From Perna viridis (lineage: Eukaryota), in NCBI GenBank assembly GCA_037379345.1, contig CM074515.1, positions 30,879,801 to 30,943,800 of the forward strand: 64,000 bases of DNA, given 5' to 3'. Shown piece by piece: positions 2,186-51,055 of this stretch. The notes under the pieces are model-generated. The model was not told the origin of the DNA. It saw only the letters and a program-made list of their open reading frames with translations, and did not search any database. Position numbers and translations under genes: made by a program. How positions within the stretch are numbered: position 1 is the first letter of the stretch; every line of letters starts with the position of its first letter.

Positions 2186-4708
2186 GCTTGAGAAAGGTAA
2201 ATCATATCAAGCATACTAATAATACAAATGCAGGTATGGTGTACACTTACTTCAAGCAGCACTAGAACCAAATACTTAGAATATTCATGATCTAAATTAC
2301 AAATATAATGAGAATGGTAATGATGAATATGTCAATTTTACAACCCCATTGGGATGACCAATGTCAGCTCAATGCCACCCATGGGCCTTCAATGAATAAC
2401 GATGAAACCCTCACACCACAGGACAGGCTGCAGCTGGCCCAAAAACAACATTATACACCGGTACAGTGAATAAGTTGCACCTATATACTCCAACAACATA
2501 AATGAATCTAATTGTGAAAACGAAACAATACAAACAGAGGCCTTTTTTCGATTTGGGACAAGCGAAAAAAATTGCGGCAGAGTTAAAGTACTTTGTGTGA
2601 ACACAACCCCCTCCCCCATTATTTCTGGCCATTGAGGAAAAAGAATTACACAGTTGAAATAACTTAAAAATTAGTTCAAAAGGTTAGGAATCCCTTATGA
2701 AAACAAAATAAGGAAACTGGTTATACGTTGCACAAATAAAAAAAAAACAAAGGACTACTGGACATTAACAGACATACCAGCTCCAGACCAGTTTAAACTT
2801 ACCAAAAGATATGTCATCATCGTATGTAATATTAATCAAATATATTCTGCTCTTTTTTAATCAACAAAAATATACAGTTTCACCTAGCTATCTTGACCAT
2901 TAATTGTTCTTATCCACGGGTATTTCGTAATTCTCGTTCTTTCATAAACTCGGTCTGCATGTAGATCGTCTATGTTTATGTGCTCATGTTGAGTTCATGT
3001 TTTGGAATTTCATCGTATTTGAATTATTCCGTTGTTTTCTAATGCCGATATTCAATACATTTATCGAATTCTCCATCTAAACTTTCTCACCTTAAAGGGG
3101 AAAAGATTAGCGACCTGTTAAGCTAACTTTTTTTCAAAAATGAAATCAAAATTATAGCATATTTATTTACCTGAAGAAATTCGTTTTCTATACATGTATA
3201 AAGTGTATCTACTTACCGAAAGTCACAACAGTGCGCCATAGAACAAGGTACAGAAAACAACGGGCCATTTCCCAAGTTAAATACTTCTTAAAACAAAAAG
3301 GAGTTGATGACTAAAGTATCATATAAAGAAAAATTTCCTCAATACATTGTAGATGCTTATTCTACATAAAAGCACTTAAGAATATTTTCATAATCTTCCT
3401 GGTTAAAAAGTGTTTTCGTGTAGTAATGTTCAGTATTAACGTAATCGTAAACTTATTACGTATATTATGATTGTTACTTTCTAAACATTTAAGTGTCAGT
3501 CTCTGACGAATGGGGCAGTGAATGAAAAATGATGTGAAAAAACATCGTTTTGAAACTTGAATTGGAATATTTGCACCATCGGCATAAAAAATGAATTTAA
3601 CTATCAATTTGGTAAATTGGATTATTATTACATTGAAGTACACTGAAAATGAACATTTCACGACCAGATAATTCCGTCAAAAGCCTATTTTTCTCACATT
3701 CTTTTTAAAGTCCAGTTAGAGCATGTCGAGATCACAGTGCTGGGGTAATATTTGAGTGCATTTTATTATTTTTCTAAATTTCCACACATTAAATAATGGG
3801 ACATGATTATTCCCTTTGAAGATCTTTTGCCACTAGTGCAAACCTTATACATTATTTCATATTAAAATACTTGTCGGTGCATAGAATATAATATATCGAA
3901 GTAACGTGCACTTTTTTATAAAATATATGCAATGGGTAAAACGTGAGAAAAATAAAAACTTTGTGCTTTGGATATTTAGCCCATTGATCCTAGGGAAATG
4001 GGTCCTTGATTCTGCGACTAAGTGTAACTCTCTTTTTTTTACTTCCTATTACAATTAGAAATATTTTTGCGCATATGTTGGTTGATTGATTGGTTGGTTC
4101 TCTTTATTTCCTCCATACAAGGAGGGTTCTACATATGAAATACTCAAACATATTTACATCTCACAAATACAGAGGGAAAAATAATAAGAATAAGTACTGG
4201 TTCATGTCAAAAATAAATCATGGCTGATTACGCATAAAGCAAGATTCAATATATTACGAATATATATATATATGTGACAGTACAAATCATATTTAAATTC
4301 ATGCAATTTGTGCATGTACTCTGCCATGTAAGAAATTGCTGATCCCATAAGTCTGACGACATTTTTCGAATAGTGTCGGTCATGCCACCAAGCATCGCTA
4401 TCTTGAATTCACTGTCCTCCTGGTTGAAGAAAGAGATCGACTTCTCTATCGGAAATACATCCACTATTTCATAGAACATATCGTTTCGTATTTGGAGAAG
4501 ATTCGTGCAGCTCAGAATATGATGCAGAAGATTGTCGTTTGAATAAAATTTACACAATGAACAGTTTCCGTCTGTATTAGGAATTGAACCTAGCTTTACG
4601 ATAAGAACAAATTGTCTTTTTTTCTGTTAGAGTGTCGTAAATTTTTTAGTATTGGAGTAAATCAGATCTCTGTTCCAATGCATTTTTCTAACGGGGTTCC
4701 TTCGTATC

Positions 4709-5167
4709 TGTCACGAAAAATATAAAATAAATGTCTTTTTCGTGTTTGTATACGTTTATTGTATTTATCATTTGTGTTTTTCATTCATATTTATTATTCA
4801 TTCATTCATCATACATCATTTGCATATTCATTGACGAATGACTGACGACGTATCGAGCACACCTTGCATGAACTAACTTAACCCTAACTTAACCTGTCTT
4901 CAAATACATTCCATTATAGGCGTTGACTTTAACAGTGGCTGACACCACCTCAATTGTATTTTTGCAGATTAGTTTCTGTCTAAATTGAATTTATTTCAAT
5001 ATTTCATAAATTCGGAATATCGGTTTTCATATCAATTATATATACTTTTAAATTATGCAATTTATTTATGAACGTTTTGGTTAATTGTATTTTTGCAGAA
5101 TAAAATATGGCATCCTGAATTCGAAATAGTATTTAGCCACAAGGTAATGACAAAAATATCGGCGACA
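4709..5167 (+). repeat. 5' LTR
   Basis: TGTCACG...GGCGACA; direct repeat of 11620-12072; contains TATATATA and AATAAA. Confidence 0.95.
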
Positions 5168-5171
5168 AATT

Positions 5172-5189
5172 TGGAGGCTCCAGCGAGAT
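5172..5189 (+). promoter_or_regulatory. Primer-binding site, complementary to tRNA-Thr(TGT)-type 3' end
   Basis: TGGAGGCTCCAGCGAGAT, 4 nt after the LTR. Its reverse complement resembles the ...ATCTCGCTGGGGCCTCCA end of metazoan tRNA-Thr(TGT) (recalled, not searched). Confidence 0.75.
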
Positions 5190-6200
5190 GCCAGCTGTAA
5201 ATTCTGCCTGATTTACTGGTTAATTGCGTCATTTCCTTGGTTTATTTTGTCGTTTAAGTTAGTTTGGCCCAACGATTGTATGTTTAATTTTCATCGTCGT
5301 TTGGCCAATCGACTAACAACGACATGTATTAAGTTTGGCCCAACGAATGAATATATTTACAATTTTCGTCGTAGTTTAGCATAACGACTTCTATACATTC
5401 AACGACAGTTTGTAGTCAACGACAAATTTATTTCAATAGATGGTGATGCGAATTACTGAAATATTAATTCAGCGATAATAAAATAGAAATCATCGTCATG
5501 AAATGGTGAAAAAATTGTCACGTACATGTATTTATCATATGAGTTTCGTAACATAAATGGTGTGTTCGATAGCGAGTGATTATACTTACGGAGGCTAGCC
5601 AATTTAATATATTATATATGAAATTTGAGTACTCAGCGCTGTAAACAGTGTGTAAATATTTTTTGTTTGTGTAAATGTCTTCGCCCGACAGTACACGACA
5701 AATCTCCGCCTTGTAGAATGCGCATCATCTGTCAACTTTAAAACTAGTGTCCCTCATCGTAGTATTTTTGAAAACCGTAAAGAATCAAACCTGCTAGAAC
5801 AATTTACAACGCTCTGGAAAAATAATGTACAATAAAAATTTAATCATTTTGAATAGTTAAGAAATCGTTTATTTTATATATTTTATATATTATATATTGT
5901 TGAAACTGATTTTGTTTATTCATAGTTGATTGACTTTCTGTTCATTATGATTACCTGTATATGTTTATAACATATTACCTGTATTTTTCAGATTTGGTGT
6001 ACATGTTAGGTGTAATGCATGATTGAAGCAGGAGTCTTTGCACTTCCCTTTTTACACTTTTGACTGATGACTGAAATTAAGATGAGTTGATTGTGACCTG
6101 TATCATCAATTATTAATCCAACAATCATTTAGTGTATTGTCTTGTGTAATTTGTAGAGTTTTGTTTGTATACAAATATTTTTTGACTAGTTTTCAAAATT

Positions 6201-6880
6201 ATGGCAGATAATAAGTCTAGATTAGAGGTTAAGAGTGAGATAGAATTGGACGAAAAAGATGTTCAGAAAATGATTCAGTATCTAACTGAACGCACTAAGT
6301 ATAAAGTGGTGATTGACGGTGAATTTAATTCGATGTTTCATAGACACAGTACCCCAAAATAGGTACTGGGGCATGAAAATGAAGAAAATGCTCCTCCTAG
6401 ATCGCCTCCGCCTAGTTGTAATTTTGAACTTTCAAAAATACCACCCGCTACGCCAGTTAGAAATTTGACGTCGCTTGCTATTAATAATAATTTGTCAAAC
6501 TGGAAGAGACCCAGACTCCCTACGTTTTCAAGTGATCAAAAAAACTTTTGACGTATGGAAATTTGAAGTCAAGCGAACTAGTCTAAGTCGAACGTTTCGT
6601 CGTCAGTTCAACAAAATTGTATTTCTCTCGAACATCAGAAGCTTAAGGAAGTATGGAAAAAGCTTGACTGCTTCAATAGGCGAATGAATTCGATGGAATC
6701 GGAATTAAAAGAACTTAAAAGTAAACAAACTGACCACCAACATTTACCCCTCCAAGTAATAACAGAGGTCAAGGTCAAAGAGGTTATTTTAATAGCTCAA
6801 GTTACAAGAGAGGCAGAGGTAATTTTGAGGACGAGGTCAGTTTAGAGGAACAGGACCAGTGAAGTTAAGGATGATAATTA
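6201..6880 (+). pseudogene. Gypsy gag remnant (PNMA-like), capsid core deleted
   Basis: MADNKSRLEVKSEIELDEKD... then RPRLPTFSSD..FDVWKFEVK, after which it jumps to the coiled-coil and RG-rich C-terminus; stops and frameshifts. Confidence 0.75.
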
Positions 6881-9800
6881 AAACGGGGAGTAGTCTCTAA
6901 TGAAGGGCAAATTAGGGACTTTGCTATTTCATTTGATGAAAACAATAGCCCTGATAAAACTGAAAATTTGTACAAAAGAATGTTTGTATTTAGGTTACGT
7001 TAAGGTTGAGTTGAAGGTTCCTTTTGTAAATGGGAAAAGTTTACAAGTGCCTTTGCATGTATTTCCTGTTAAGATGATAATAGTAAGGTTCCAGTTGTGA
7101 TCGGTACTAGTGTTTGAATTTATTCAAATATGATATGAGTGAGAATACATCTGGAAAAATTCCGAAAGCTTGGAATGTAGCTATGTCCTCTCTCACGAGT
7201 GAAAATACAAGTTTGGTTCATTACACAAATAAGAGAGTTGTAAAGTTGATGCCTATGTCTATTAAAACAGTGTCTGGAGTGGTTAGTGCTCAAGGTGACA
7301 CAGGTTCTACCGTAGTTACTGAGAATTTAGATTGTGAATTGTCAGATTGGGTATCAGTATGTCCTAGGGTTTTAGAATTGAAGAAATCTGGTAAATGTAG
7401 AATTCCTGTTCGGATTTTTAATATGACGGCAACATTTTTTGAAATCAAGCCAAAATATATCTAATGTGCACTTAGTGATGTCAAGGTTATACGCCATATC
7501 GATGATAGTATTCAATATGTAGATAGTTCTAAAACCAAGAGTGGTGTTTTAGAGAAAGATATAAAGAAACTTGGTTGTAAGGTTGATGAAAATTTATCTG
7601 ATGAGGTTAGACAAAGACTGTTCAGCTTGTTAGGCAAATGGAAGTCCGTGTTTTCAACAGGTCCTACAGATCTTTGGTATACAACATTAGTCGAGCATGA
7701 AATTAAGCTGACTGATGATACTCTGTTAAGATTGCCTTTTGGTTTGACTAACGCAGTAGCTTGTTTTCAAGATTGATGGAAAAATGTATAGGAGAGATGC
7801 ATTTGAGAGAGTGTCTGATATTTCTTGATGATATTATCATTTTTTCAAAGACAGTTGAGGCACATTTGGAAAGGTTAGATTCTGTTTTTCGTCGTTTGAA
7901 GGAACATGGTTTGAAGTTGAAGGGTTCTAAGTGCGAATTTTAACACAGAGGTCAAATATCTAGGTTTTGTGGTTTCAGAAGAAGGTATTAACTAGATGAC
8001 GAGAAGATTGAGGTAGTCAAAAATTGGCCAGATATTCAGAATGTAAAGGATTTGAGGAAAGTTTTGGGATTCACCTCGTATTATAGGAAATTTGTAAAAG
8101 ATAATGGGAAAATATTGAAACCTCTTAACGATATTCTTATTGGTCATTGTACCAATATAAAGGGTAGGAAGAAGTCTAAGACTAAACCTAAACATCGGCA
8201 ATGGGGTGATCTGGAGGCAAACGCTAAGAAAACTATTGTAGAAAAATTTACCAGTCCTCCCATATCAGGATATGCTGACTATAACCTCCCATTCATAGTG
8301 CATACAGATGCGAGTGGTGATGGCTTAGGTGCAGTTTTTTATCAGTGTCAAATGGAGTTGAAAGGGTAATATCATACGCAAGGAGAGGTTTGAGAGGTTC
8401 TGAAAAGTTATATCCTGCACATAAGAGGAAATTTCTTGCCCTCAAATGGGCCGTTACAGATAAGTTTCATGATTATCATTGTGGAAACCGTTTTGAGGTA
8501 AAAACGGATAATAACCCTTTGACTTATGTCATGAATAAAGCTAAGCTCGATGCTTCATTGGCAGACTATAATTTTTCTGCCACTTATAGAAGTGGTAAAT
8601 CAAAGGCGATGCCGATGTTTTGTCTAGAATTGATTCAGGGAAGAGTATTAAAAGTGAAGTTGTCAAAGCCGTTTGTACGTCTATAGTTTTTTTCTGAGAA
8701 TCCTGGTATTTTTAGCTCAAAGTGTAAATTCAGAGTCCGATGATGTAAATGGTCCTATAGATTTGTGTGATATAAATTGGGCCGATGAGCAATTAGCCAA
8801 CCCGAATATTTCAGAGGTCCTTAGGCTTTTGAAAACCGGCCATAAGCCAAGAAAGCGTGTTATTGCACAGAAACCGCGTGAAGTAAGAAAGTTGTTGAAT
8901 GAGTGGAACAACTTGTATTTTAAGGACGGTGTTTTATACAGAAGTGGTAGTTTACAGAGTGATAAGGTCCAACAACTAGTATTACCCGATGTTTACCGTA
9001 ATGTGGATTTCACGGGTCTTCATGACGATGTGGGTCATCAGGGGTGCGATCGCAAAATTATTTTTGGTCAAATCACGATTTTTCTGGCCTAGCATGGATA
9101 AGGATGTTGAAAATAAGATATCCAATTGTTCAAACTGTATTTTGCGGAAATCAAAGGCAAAGAATGCTGCTGAGATGGTTAGCATCAAGTCATGTGAACC
9201 GTTAGAACTGATCTGTATAGACTATTTGAGCCTGTAGAAATCCAAAGGAGGTTACAAAAACATTTTAGTTATAACAGATCACTTTACGCGATTTGCACAT
9301 GCTATACCCACGAGAAACCAGTCTGCGTATACAACAGCAAAGTGTCTTTGGGACCATTTTATTCAGCACTATTCATTCCCTGCGCGTATTCATAGTGACC
9401 AAAGTCGGAACTTCGAAACTAAAGTTATACGTGAGCTTTGCAAGATAGCTGGAATAAAAAAAAATCTCGAACGACACCGTATCACCCACAGGGAAATGGC
9501 CAGTGCGAGAGATTTAACAAGACTTTGTTAAATATGCTTGGTACATTGAATGATAACCAAAAGTCTGTTTGGAAAAGCTACGTCTCGCCGCTTGTCCATA
9601 CGTACAATGCGACACAACATGAGAGTACGGGTTATAGTCCTCATTTTTTAATGTTTGGATGGCACCCTAGATTAACAATAGATGCATTTTTTGGCACACA
9701 CTCTGGACTTTTATCTAGTAAGAATCCTGATAATTACGCTGCGAAACTCGAAAAACGTCTCAAGTTTGCCTACAAAACAGCCGCTAGCGAAGCAGAGAAA

Positions 9801-10614
9801 GCTAGTAAACGTCACAAAGCCAGATACGATTTACGTGTTAGAATTTCGGTGCTAAAATCAGGCGATCGAGTATTAGTCAAGAACGTTATTTTGCGGGGCA
9901 AATATAAGCTTACAAACAAATGGGAACGCTGTCCGTATATTGCACAGTCCCAACCAGACCATGGTATACCCGTATACGCGAATTCGGTCGTGGAACAAAA
10001 CGTACAGTTCACAGAAATTTATTTTTACCGATTGGCAATACAGATATCTCATCAGCTTCCGACAATCCAAGCGATATATTGTTAAATAATCGCCACTGAA
10101 AGAGTAGTAATAATACTACAAACTTAATCACTCCGAATAGCGAGGAAACTAGGTGGTCGGTAGAAGAAGTACAGACTGATGGTGATCTTTCTGATAGCTC
10201 AGATGATAGTGAGGTGTGTTTGAATCGGTTTGTTTCGATGGGCGAATTAGTGAAATAAACGAGTCGTCTTGTTCCTTTTGCTCCAGAGTTTATCCCAGCT
10301 TTGCGAACGAATACTAGTCATCAAATTCATCTCGTGTGTCAAATTTAAACTTTTAAACATCTGGAGATAAATGTATGCACACTACGAGTTCAGAAGCAGA
10401 AGCAAGCGTTGTAAATGAAAATGCATCGCAAAATTTAAGAGTTGCAAATGAACGGTCAGAATCGTTGGAAATTAGTAAAGAGAATGACAGACAGTTGAAT
10501 GAAAGTAGTAGACATAACAATAATATGGTAGCAGAACCAGAACAAATTGTAGTTCGTAGGAGCAATCGAATGTCAAGTCCGCCTGAACGTTTCAGAGATT
10601 ATACCAGATACTGA
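6880..10614 (+). pseudogene. Gypsy pol remnant (partial PR, partial RT, RNase H, integrase)
   Basis: YLGYV (PR C-half); LPFGLTNA and CLIFLDDIIIFS (RT, 7821-7832); FIVHTDASGDGLGAV, ALKWAVTDKFHDY and TDNNPLTY (RH); HDDVGHQG..FFWP..CSNC (HHCC); ICIDYL, ITDHFTR, HSDQ and TTPYHPQGNGQCERFNKTL (IN); many frameshifts. Confidence 0.95.
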
Positions 10615-10758
10615 AATTTCATTATTATGAGCGGAAATCGGTTCGTCGCGATGCACTTACCACATGCATTTGCTGATTTTCCCACATAATTATGATACAT
10701 TTTTTTTAATTTGATTTTCAATTTGTTTTTTATGGTTTTTATTCTGTTTTTTATAGAT

Positions 10759-11421
10759 ATGAGTTCCTATGTTTATGCTTCAAGTAGAGGGAAGGGTTTG
10801 AAGGATATTGAAAATGCCATCGTTAATACTAAACCTGGTTGAAAATACTTGGACTTGTTGAATAAACCGAAAAGTAATTTGCAATATTCGGATGGTAGAC
10901 AATTTGTGTATATCAAGTGTGGCATACCAGACATTTGCAAACTGGAAAGAGATAAAGCTTGAAATTATGAAGATTCGTTTTTTTATCTGGACAAAAGTGT
11001 TAATCAAGTATTTGATGACAGTGTTTGTAAAATTAGGCAGGTTTATGAATGTTAAAATCAGATTGGTTATAAAGTTGTCTTTTGTACAGTATGTACAATG
11101 AACTTTGATAAATGGAACCACAGTAGATTGAATCAGGGTAAAAGATCATTTTTTGAAGTATGAAGACAAGTATGTCGTTATGCAAGATCATTTGAATTAT
11201 CTTTTAAGTAGATTGAATCAGTTCATTACTGAACTGGATGTTTCAAAGACCTATGTACACCATTCACTCATTCATATGTTCACCAGAGATGTGCGGGTAG
11301 TAAAATCCGTTACAAATATTCGAAACTTGTTGATGGTGTCCATCCTTCTCTTGAATTTAACAATCAATGGTTGACACATTTGCAAAAAGTTATCTATGAT
11401 AACGAACAGAAATTTTTGTAA
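10759..11421 (+). pseudogene. Gypsy ORF3 in env position, SGNH/GDSL hydrolase-like (3 stops, 2 frameshifts)
   Basis: Hand translation: MSSYVYASSRGKGL..TKPG*K..FVYIKCGIPDIC..KVVFCTV..KWN../..LNQFITEL../..TPFTHSYVH..YSKLVDGVHPS..QWLTHLQKVIYDNEQKFL*. SGNH blocks I, II, III and V appear in order. Confidence 0.72.
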
Positions 11422-11606: not shown

Positions 11607-11616
11607 GAGGGGAGGA
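11607..11616 (+). promoter_or_regulatory. Polypurine tract
   Basis: GAGGGGAGGA, 3 nt before the 3' LTR. Confidence 0.85.
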
Positions 11617-11619
11617 CTA

Positions 11620-12072
11620 TGTGATGGAAATATAAAATAAATGTCTGGTTTGTGTTTGTATACGTTTATCGTATCCATTATTTTTCATTCATATTTATCA
11701 TTCATTCATTCATCATACCTCATTTGCATATTCATTGACGAATGACTGACGACGTATCGAGCACACCTTGCATGAACTAACTTAACCCTAACTTAACCTG
11801 TCTTCAAATTCATTCCATTATAAGGCGTTGACTTGAGTAGTGGCTGACATCATCTCAATTGTATTTTTGCAGGTTAGTTTCTGTCTAAATTGAATTTATT
11901 TCAATATTTCATAGTTTCGGAATATCGGTTTTCATACTAATTATATATACTTTTAAATTATGCAGTTTATGTATGAACGTTTTGGTTAATTGTATTTTTG
12001 CGGAATAAAATATGGCATCCTGAATTCGAAATATTATTTAGCCACAAGGTAATGACAAAAATACCGGTGACA
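11620..12072 (+). repeat. 3' LTR
   Basis: TGTGATG...GGTGACA; roughly 90-93% identical to the 5' LTR by eye. Confidence 0.95.
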
Positions 12073-21323: not shown

Positions 21324-21449
21324 GTTTTGTTTGTTTAGATTGTTTGTTTGTTGTTTGTTTTTTTTTCTTTTTTAGCTTCTTTTGCATTTTTCATCAAAAT
21401 CCAAACATGCACACAAAACTGCATAATATTCAATGTTGTTTGCATGGCA

Positions 21450-21870
21450 GATAGTGCCAGAACATTGCTGTGAGCTGGTATCATGCCATAGTATCATTAT
21501 ATGCGGAAATCATTATTGAAAAAATTATTGTGCACCAATATAGTTCGCGAACATTATCGTTAGCTAAAACAGTGTCGAAACCCCATTGTGCGCTTGAAAT
21601 TGCCATAACACCATTGTGTGCTAGAACATTGCTATAACATAATTGTGTACTACTTCCGTAACACAATTGTGTGCTAGAACACCGTTATAACATCATTGTA
21701 TGCTAGAACATTGTTATAAACCTAACTATTTACTTGAACACTTTCATAACACCATTGTAAGCTAGAACACTGTTGTAACATCATTGCGTACTAATGCATT
21801 GTTATAACATCATTTTGTGCTAGAATCATTATCAACATCATGAGTGCTAGGATAGTGCAAGAATAATTGC
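21450..21870. repeat. Degenerate ~30-bp tandem repeat (cattgtgtgctagaacattgttataaca), left block
   Basis: GCTAGAAC core recurring about every 30 bp. Confidence 0.85.
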
Positions 21871-26744: not shown

Positions 26745-26923
26745 CTATTGTAATCATGAAAGTAATCGTGATTGCAGGGTAACTTGAAATGTAAATGACT
26801 AAATTGGTTACATGTAATCAGTTACTTTTATGATTAATGATTAATCATTACAATTATTACTTATAAGAATATAGTCAATGACAGCTGATTAATTATTACA
26901 ATTACAAGTATTCCATCTCTGAT
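26745..26923. repeat. GTAATC/GATTAC-rich dispersed repeat (MITE-like fragment)
   Basis: Clustered gtaat/attac motifs ending ccatctctg. Confidence 0.4.
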
Positions 26924-26924
26924 C

Positions 26925-27255
26925 ATGTGTGCTAGAATAGTGCAAGAACATTGCTGTGTGTCAGAATAGTGCCATGGCATCAGTGTGTGCTAGAAAGTTG
27001 TTATAACTTTATTTTTCCTAGAATCATGTTATAACTTCATTTTCCTAGAATCATGCCTTAACATCATTAGTGCTAAAATAGAATAAGCACATTGTGTGTC
27101 AAATAGTGCCATAACGTCAGTGTGTGCTAGAACACTTTTATAACATATTTTTGCTTAGTTTTGTTATTTTGTTTTTTTTTTTTGTTGAATCATACCTAAA
27201 ATCATGCGTGCTAAAATAGTGCAATAAAATTGCTGCGTGTCAGAATAGTGCCATT
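26925..27255. repeat. Same ~30-bp GCTAGAA tandem repeat, right block
   Basis: Same unit and orientation as 21450-21870. Confidence 0.85.
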
Positions 27256-27394
27256 ACATAAAAAAAACAACGTCATTTATCAATGTGTATTACAATAGTG
27301 TGTCGCATCTACAGTGCAAACTGTGTGATGGAAAACTAAAATTCGACGAATTTTCCGCACTTTCTGAATTAAAGCAATGTTTACTAGCGTTATA

Positions 27395-49380: not shown

Positions 49381-50479
49381 TAATTGACTTTTTTACATCA
49401 CTGTACATAAAAAAAGGTTTCTGAACTGACAAACAAACGTGCCGAAACTTTTGAAATAAGACCGTTAGATCCATCCATGTTTGTTTTCCAATCCAACTGT
49501 TCAATATATAATACAATGGACAAGTAATATAGTCAATCGGCCGACTGACCTACGACCTAAATCTCTTTGATTAATAAGATTATGCCCTGTATTTAGAATG
49601 AATGATGTTTAGGCATATTAAAGACGAGCTTCCTTCAATAGAAGGTAAAAACATTCCCACTGAGTACTCGTATTTCTTACAAATGAAGCTATTTGACGAT
49701 TATGCTGACTGAACAAATCTGAAGAACATTATTCCTGTCGAATTTTAACATTAAAAGCATGTTTGTCAAAAACAGTGTGAATTAAGGGGGCGTTCACAAA
49801 TACAATACGATAACTGTTCATCGCATTTGCTCTTTATGTGCATATTCTATACACGTTGACCGGATAGGCGGTGTTGCACCGAGCTATATTCTGTGACTTA
49901 TACAACTACTCATTGTCTAAAACTACATTACAAGGTTTTTGGAACAGCGCTTTGACATTTTAAAACCCAACCGTTCTGCTCAATATCTGTACAACTGATT
50001 AGTCAAATTACCCATTAACTTTCTTTTCACCATGCAAGTGCTCTATTCATACCAATGCTTTATATCTTGTACGGGTTATCCAAATAGAGGAATAAACGTT
50101 ACACTTAATTATGTGTCTTTTGTGTCGTTATTGCGGTCACAAAACACCTATAAAGCCACTAATACAATACTTCATTTATTGATATATTTTGATCTCTTTT
50201 ATAATTGTCGACTATTTAATCTTAGTATCAAAACATTTGCTTTACAAGATTACGAGAAGTAGACTATGGATGCTTTAGCGCAATATGTATTCAATTTACA
50301 GAAATAATTTTGTTATAAGACGGAGTTTATTGTAAACATTGATTATGGATAAAGATATTACCAAAAACCACCGAACACTAAGGAATTGTCAAAAGGAAAT
50401 GTTAAAAGGCGGATCAAGTAAAATCATCCAACATGCAAAATAAAGTTAAATGCTGTCAAATAAAAATAATAATAGTATA

Positions 50480-51055
50480 GAAAGACACTGCGTAGTGTTA
50501 TAAGACACGCTATAGTATAGTTATACACTTTATACTTTTGACCAAAACACTGTAGTATAGATTGACACTTTATACTTTTGACAAACTCAGTATAGCATAA
50601 ATTGATATTATTGAAAAACACTTCATAGTATAGATAAACACACACTTTAGTACAGAAAATGCTTCATACTGCTGACAGACACATTTTTGTATAGATAGAC
50701 ACACAATATTATTGACAGACACACTATAGTTTTGATAGACACGATGTATTGTTTGACACACACACTATTGTATGGGTAGACGCACCATGTTATTGAAAGA
50801 CACCCTATAGTAAAGATAGACAAAGCATGCTATTGACAGACACACTATAGTATAGATAGACAAAGCATGTTGTTGACAGACACACTATTGTATAGATGGA
50901 CAATGCATGTGTTGACAGACATACTATTGTATAGATAGACACACCATATTGTAGACAGACACACTATTGTATAGATAGACACACCATATTATTGGCAGAC
51001 ACACTCTAGTATAGACATACAAAGCATGTTGTTGACAGACACAACATATTGTAAA
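50480..51055. repeat. ~40-42-bp minisatellite (gacagacacactattgtatagatagacacaccatattatt)
   Basis: About 10 or more degenerate tandem units. Confidence 0.85.

Follow-up and report, generated by a model that had tools for sequence, protein, structure and literature searches.

The locus described here raises the question of what kind of gene a Gypsy retrotransposon of the mollusc Perna viridis carries in the position where related elements hold env. The window, meaning the whole stretch of DNA that was analysed, spans 64,000 nucleotides (GCA_037379345.1, contig CM074515.1, positions 30,879,801 to 30,943,800), and all of the window features given below lie on its plus strand. An earlier note on this DNA had proposed that an SGNH-hydrolase-like gene, provided with its own splice acceptor, serves the element as an analogue of env. 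The present work examines the copy in the window, its relatives in the same genome and the predicted protein, and weighs the functions that such a gene may have.

The element itself is an old and decayed Gypsy copy, in which the hallmarks of the group, namely paired TG..CA LTRs, a primer-binding site and a polypurine tract, can still be recognised. The 5' LTR (TGTCAC...GCGACA, 4709..5167) pairs with the 3' LTR (TGTGAT...GTGACA, 11620..12072) at 92.9% identity over the 452 nt compared. The primer-binding site (5172..5189), which we take to be of the tRNA-Gln type, has its counterpart after the LTR in L042, L043, L049 and L055, and the polypurine tract was located from the sequence at 11607..11616. 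Reading frames place a broken gag at 6201..6890 (3' end approximate), followed by a pol gene with many stops and frameshifts at 6880..10614 (5' end approximate). The order PR-RT-RH-IN was obtained by Pfam on the pol of sister family L049, whose gag is of the PNMA type, and the pol fragments of the window are ordered alike. No target-site duplication was found around the window copy (positions 4709 and 12072). The first bases of its two LTRs also differ (4709, 12072), and the copy may simply be old or may have arisen by recombination between two insertions. Elsewhere in the window, the intervals 21436-21825, 26922-27259 and 50471-51048 consist of degenerate tandem repeats, whose units measure about 29 and 20/40 nt.

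Between the integrase and the polypurine tract, the interrupted frame of the earlier note was recovered as ORF3 (10759..11421), as were the integrase stop at 10614 and the acceptor AG at 10755-10756. From its ATG at 10759, frame 1 reads MSSYVYASSRGKGL, then KPG directly followed by a stop, and further on VYIKCGIPDIC. Stops fall at codons 28, 68 and 99 (10840, 10960 and 11053), LVDGVHPS..W is present near the C-terminus and the terminal stop lies at 11419-11421. The family profile matches this frame over 10759-11415 (E 9.8e-51, stops read as X) and the adjacent frame over 11144-11251 (E 6.6e-6); because the profile switches frame over that interval, two compensating frameshifts are placed near 11150 and 11250. 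With three stops and two frameshifts, the window ORF3 is a pseudogene of a predicted SGNH-fold esterase. Pfam, applied to the three raw window frames, gave no GDSL match.

The broken copy belongs to a family in which the gene is a regular constituent. A DNA search of the same genome yielded five further close copies of the window family (89-93% identity), all of them broken, and, at a greater distance, a family whose ORFs are uninterrupted, while a protein search with one uninterrupted ORF gave 94 matches in the genome. Whether the gene is fixed was judged by a search with the integrase alone, in which the best-scoring long 60 of 150 matches were tabulated. The ORF lies downstream of 25 of the 28 integrases with at least 58% identity, as against 1 of the 32 below that value, and this single case is itself a degraded member of the window family. 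The three exceptions among the 28 consist of a 5' remnant (E 2.5e-4), a weak trace and a locus cut inside the integrase, and the three neighbouring Gypsy families checked contain no esterase ORF. The gene thus recurs in other members of the family, as had been anticipated, following the close integrases and remaining intact in sister families. In one of these, L049, gag, pol and ORF3 are all intact, the LTRs are 99.9-100% alike and five of the six copies checked are flanked by 4-bp target-site duplications; this young, env-less family was recently active. No env was found anywhere in the window lineage, the young family included, and ORF3 stands there as a separate ORF after pol and before the polypurine tract, without a transmembrane segment. 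Divergent esterase-like ORFs, each after an acceptor-like AG and each lacking the block I Ser, were further noted at L059:8186-9337 and in L060 (G000:C7). No reverse transcriptase was found near either, and the former ends in a long Arg/Asp repeat resembling P0062; these ORFs are possibly non-catalytic or host-captured copies.

Intact members of the family carry the mark of purifying selection. A codon model applied to seven naturally uninterrupted ORFs gave an omega of 0.033, a rough value with synonymous sites saturated between families, and the finite pairwise dN/dS values among eight ORFs all lie below 0.5, under the neutral ratio near 1 with which the earlier note had contrasted its proposal. 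Comparison of the window copy with its five sister copies gave dN/dS of 0.5-1.8, which fits decay after insertion.

The evidence for splicing comes from the family at large and from a single sister. An AG stands just 5' of the ORF in six of seven family representatives and in 10 of 13 further loci, and the acceptor of the window (10742..10756) corresponds to an AG that is spliced in L049. In that family, a contig of run X4 joins 2669 to 8179 across GT..AG borders, skipping 5,509 nt and connecting the ORF3 acceptor with a leader donor some 90 nt 5' of where gag begins. This joint consists of one contig with 30 nt on its short side, from a run guessed to be RNA and belonging to four runs placed on L049 that were chosen by matches to this gene. 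The other three gave no joint, among them the run documented as RNA (182 reads), and the four runs placed on the window family supplied few reads and zero splice joints. The proposal of an ORF3 acceptor is therefore supported, by the conserved AG and by the L049 contig. Its suggested partner, the donor-like AAG|GTAATG in the 5' LTR (5143/5144, within 5141..5149), fared differently: the site exists, and is present in the 3' LTR too, but the L049 donor lies in the leader. As partner of the ORF3 acceptor, the LTR donor was not supported, no such joint having appeared in the runs on L049 or the window family. The junction reads that the earlier note had called for are thus represented by the acceptor joint from the leader donor in the sister family, with none in the window family and none from the LTR. 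The homologue of the leader donor in the window family (6081/6082, within 6079..6087) is canonical in five of eight copies, and its GT has been lost in the window copy. The LTR donor may pair with the AG at 5991, at the end of an acceptor-like pyrimidine tract (5975..5991), as a first leader intron. One contig of run X1 agrees with L049 up to just past the leader donor, and the next 25 letters match no locus that was retrieved; this extension is a possible second splice target. Taking selection and splicing together, we regard it as very probable that ORF3 derives from a selected, spliced gene.

The protein is predicted to adopt the flavodoxin-like fold of the SGNH/GDSL hydrolase superfamily. 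The sister ORF L032, which has no interruptions, was modelled with AlphaFold2 from 119 sequences at a pLDDT of 97.7 and a pTM of 0.92. The PDB structures that Foldseek listed for this model were either GDSL/SGNH hydrolases or proteins designed on their scaffold, with a TM of about 0.6 and a lowest E of 1.8e-7. Sialate and peptidoglycan O-acetyl enzymes are included among its best structural matches, and the named viral matches are mostly phage esterases; PDB 4C1B (ZfL2-1) is absent among the Foldseek matches listed. At the level of sequence, Pfam Lipase_GDSL was detected in 16 of the 119 aligned members at E<=0.01 and weakly (E 0.03-0.08) in the intact sister ORFs, and a 10-sequence family profile matched no SGNH structure. 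Since Pfam was negative on the window frames and weak on the sisters, the fold assignment, which agrees with the earlier proposal, draws on the model and on the profile, the latter tying the window ORF3 to the modelled L032.

Residue counts over the 112 profile rows of full-length matches, which include near-duplicates and the P0024 repeats, show that the catalytic positions have been kept. The block I Ser occurs in 106 of the rows and the Arg next to it in 109, within a motif x-[STD]-S-R-G; the block II Gly occurs in 102, within PG[AG]; and the Asp and the His of block V occur in 105 each, so that the Asp-x-x-His of the DGVHP motif is conserved beyond the window copy. In the window, the frame and the profile rows place the Ser with the near-invariant Arg of block I at 10783..10788 and the Pro-Gly of block II at 10834..10839, and together with HMMER they place the Asp-Gly-Val-His-Pro of block V at 11332..11346. 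Blocks I, II and V were therefore read correctly in the earlier note, but the GxND-like block III was not: at 10921..10932 the HMMER alignment gives Gly-Ile-Pro-Asp, with Pro at the position of the oxyanion Asn. The family motif here is G-[IL]-[PC]-D, and the Asn position holds Pro in 68, Cys in 29 and Asn in 3 of the 112 rows. Because HMMER aligns this block to the GTND/GIND of solved GDSL proteins, the Asn has been lost from the window ORF3 and from the majority of its relatives.

By its predicted fold, the family is a non-canonical SGNH member, and DltD and other known members are likewise devoid of the Asn. Active SGNH-like enzymes without it include DltD, At4g34215 and AlgJ/AlgX, according to Table 2 of PMC10792757, and for XOAT1 and PatB1 the portion of bioRxiv 2020.01.16.909127 drawn upon proposes that an Arg serves the oxyanion hole instead. 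All of these retain the triad and have the Asn replaced, as here, although their hosts and substrates are unrelated. By analogy, the conserved Arg after the Ser might take the role of the missing Asn in this family. Further conserved residues occur in the cap, beyond the catalytic triad, and the protein is basic (30-31 K+R vs 20-23 D+E). The features of an env protein (signal peptide, furin site, fusion peptide and transmembrane anchor) were absent from ORF3 in a hydropathy scan and in Pfam; the best 19-residue hydropathy is 0.9-1.3, vs 3.0-3.3 for env, in agreement with the earlier note that the protein has neither a transmembrane nor a signal segment.

A second lineage in the same genome, whose reverse transcriptase is 36-37% identical to that of the young family and forms a separate clade in the RT tree, bears the same esterase, a gene kept under selection in both groups. 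Its pol has a chromodomain-like tail and its env matches Baculo_F (E 1.3e-20), and env followed by the esterase was found in 7 of the 32 stretches examined. Young four-gene errantiviruses of this kind were noted at L062/L053 (G000:C15, ~10.45-10.46 Mb) and L063/L054 (C3, ~27.74-27.76 Mb), with gag, pol with the chromodomain-like tail, an F-type env (one frameshift) and the esterase between LTRs of ~1.9 kb that are 99.7-99.8% identical and flanked by 4-bp duplications; their env and esterase are close to the Mytilus gene models P0168 and P0018. In L048, the middle of env has been deleted, so that its N- and C-terminal remnants adjoin (L048:7296-7580), the esterase is intact and the LTRs are 99.5% alike; this copy is a recent env-deletion derivative. 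Splicing apparently attaches a Gag leader to the esterase of this lineage, as judged from a gene model and from donor sites. In the RefSeq model XP_063417676.1, the esterase is preceded by 44 residues of Gag, an in-phase GAG|GTAAA donor lies at the joining point in L062 and L048, and no ATG follows the acceptor in L048, L057, L076 and L081.

The esterases of the two lineages form sister clades with a short stem, and monophyly of those of the window lineage was not rejected. Measured as summed branches, RT path lengths are 1.41 between the lineages vs 0.44 within the window lineage, in a tree built without reference clades or an outgroup, and the corresponding esterase path lengths are 1.57 vs 1.83. 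These different depths, together with the intermediate Gypsy families that do not have the gene, suggest that an esterase cassette may have moved once between the lineages, in either direction. Beyond P. viridis, the named homologues are Mytilus gene models in the order pol-esterase or pol-env-esterase, and look-alike clusters in the Atlas come from Mollusca and Annelida. The profile finds 1,126 clusters (50% identity) at E<=0.001, most of them unnamed; relatives were absent from viral-contig scans and from one metagenome scan, and another metagenome scan gave one 1.1-kb contig. Two proteins of unusual build, P0024 (2135 aa), with six tandem degenerate repeats of the esterase domain, and P0198 (714 aa, a Mytilus californianus model), in which the domain is joined to a long unrelated N-terminal region, are candidates for domesticated copies.

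The reading that accounts best for these observations, with a probability of about 0.6, is that ORF3 is the decayed copy of an accessory gene conserved in a Gypsy clade. The gene would be translated from a spliced subgenomic RNA, its product would be the predicted soluble serine esterase of the SGNH fold, and this enzyme would assist the particle at membranes or surfaces, alongside env where an env exists. That the protein is an active hydrolase seems likely. A membrane or lipid target has somewhat less than an even chance, and nothing in the data favours lipid over another ester as substrate. The least probable alternative by far, to which we give hardly any credence, is that the ORF is neutral captured DNA or a chance motif match. 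It could appeal to the pseudogene state of the window copy and its dN/dS against the five sisters, but the strength of the profile match to the window frame, the 94 genome matches, the low omega between families and the same gene order kept in Mytilus gene models oppose it; one-off capture and chance resemblance are ruled out by selection, by the fixed position after the integrase and by the profile match.

One choice lies between a helper of env and a replacement for it. According to the latter proposal, elements without env would owe their entry through membranes, or their transfer between cells, to this protein; ORF3 does occupy the env position and is spliced like env, the window lineage with its young active family has no env, and L048 retained the esterase after env loss. 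The same gene nevertheless coexists with an F-type env in seven loci of the second lineage, its product has neither a transmembrane nor a signal segment, and PMC5408684, in its accessible text, argued likewise for the rotifer GDSL ORFs. The env-analogue claim of the earlier note, in the sense of a replacement, was thus not upheld and is judged improbable; because one lineage has the esterase beside a real env, it is likely a helper enzyme, and the finding argues that it complements env rather than standing in for it. A possible but still unlikely role, and the strongest of the competitors, is that of a counter-defence or host-modifying enzyme, which would deacylate a restricting host protein, RNA cap or glycan, or, in the manner of the catalytically inactive OSK domain, would bind RNA. 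A soluble, basic protein with conserved cap residues, which suggest a specific substrate, would suit this role, and its usefulness to lineages with and without env agrees with a function that does not depend on entry; yet the triad is retained, unlike in OSK (PMC10792757, Table 2), PMC3905857 reports that the esterase of ZfL2-1 fails to bind oligo-A RNA, and no host target was suggested by any analysis. A bolder extension of the helper reading, which we consider rather doubtful, is that a portable spliced cassette moves between bivalve retrovirus-like lineages. The fourth gene of the errantivirus would then be a packaged, Gag-leader-fused enzyme that modifies membranes or glycans and works with the F-type fusogen, and in the env-less clade it would support cell-to-cell movement alone. 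Influenza C and coronaviruses, which have an esterase, offer an analogue for this reading of the errantivirus gene.

In the literature covered, which lies outside Repbase Reports and subscription journals, PMC5408684 is the only report of an esterase in LTR elements, and neither this subfamily nor an element with both env and esterase is described. Within the portions available, PMC6238403 on mollusc Gypsy clades and PMC12440569 on Troyka do not mention an esterase. Chromodomain F-type errantiviruses of Cnidaria, Mollusca and Annelida, with Mytilus ones listed, are described in PMC13524379, and the second lineage resembles them in its chromodomain-like pol tail and Baculo_F env, unlike the window's own lineage, which has no env. 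Neither an esterase nor a hydrolase is named in the main text of that report, nor do SGNH, GDSL, esterase or ORF4 occur in seven supplements. The present finding adds a previously unreported fourth gene to mollusc errantiviruses.

The closest precedent is that of the Vesta LTR retrotransposons of bdelloid rotifers, in which GDSL/SGNH ORF3s occupy the env position (Rodriguez, Kenefick, Arkhipova 2017, PMC5408684). Both systems are gypsy-like elements that encode an SGNH esterase as ORF3, 3' of pol, without a transmembrane segment or coiled coil, and the rotifer ORF3 is likewise taken as a spliced unit and given a proposed membrane role. The Vesta ORF3s are, however, about 1.3 kb long with S, G, N and H intact, whereas those described here measure 0.66 kb and have Pro or Cys for Asn; the Vesta pol has a dUTPase, and no dUTPase family was found on the pol of L049 or L053. 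The accessible part of the Vesta report describes no env-plus-esterase element, no splice junction and no departure from neutrality.

An SGNH domain is also found in ORF1 of CR1/L2/RTEX and Penelope-like retroelements, exemplified by ZfL2-1 (PDB 4C1B), whose esterase hydrolyses esters and binds liposomes in the portion of Schneider 2013 (PMC3905857) relied upon, and whose block II is an FPGA motif (PMC10792757, Table 2) resembling the PG[AG] of this family. ZfL2-1 is nonetheless a non-LTR element with the domain in ORF1, a coiled-coil dimer and the canonical Asn, whereas here a single domain lies at the 3' position of an LTR element. For the question of why several retroelement classes repeatedly capture SGNH esterases, the genome of P. 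viridis offers a natural comparison: one small enzyme, under clear selection and with a defined splice, occurs both in a young family that lacks env and, in a distant lineage, downstream of a genuine env. The family is a large, unnamed subfamily with an altered oxyanion hole, and its product, a single protein of 220 residues, can be assayed. An SGNH/GDSL ORF3 at the env position of gypsy-like elements was thus known from Vesta; new are this esterase subfamily, the env-plus-esterase layout and the evidence for splicing and selection.
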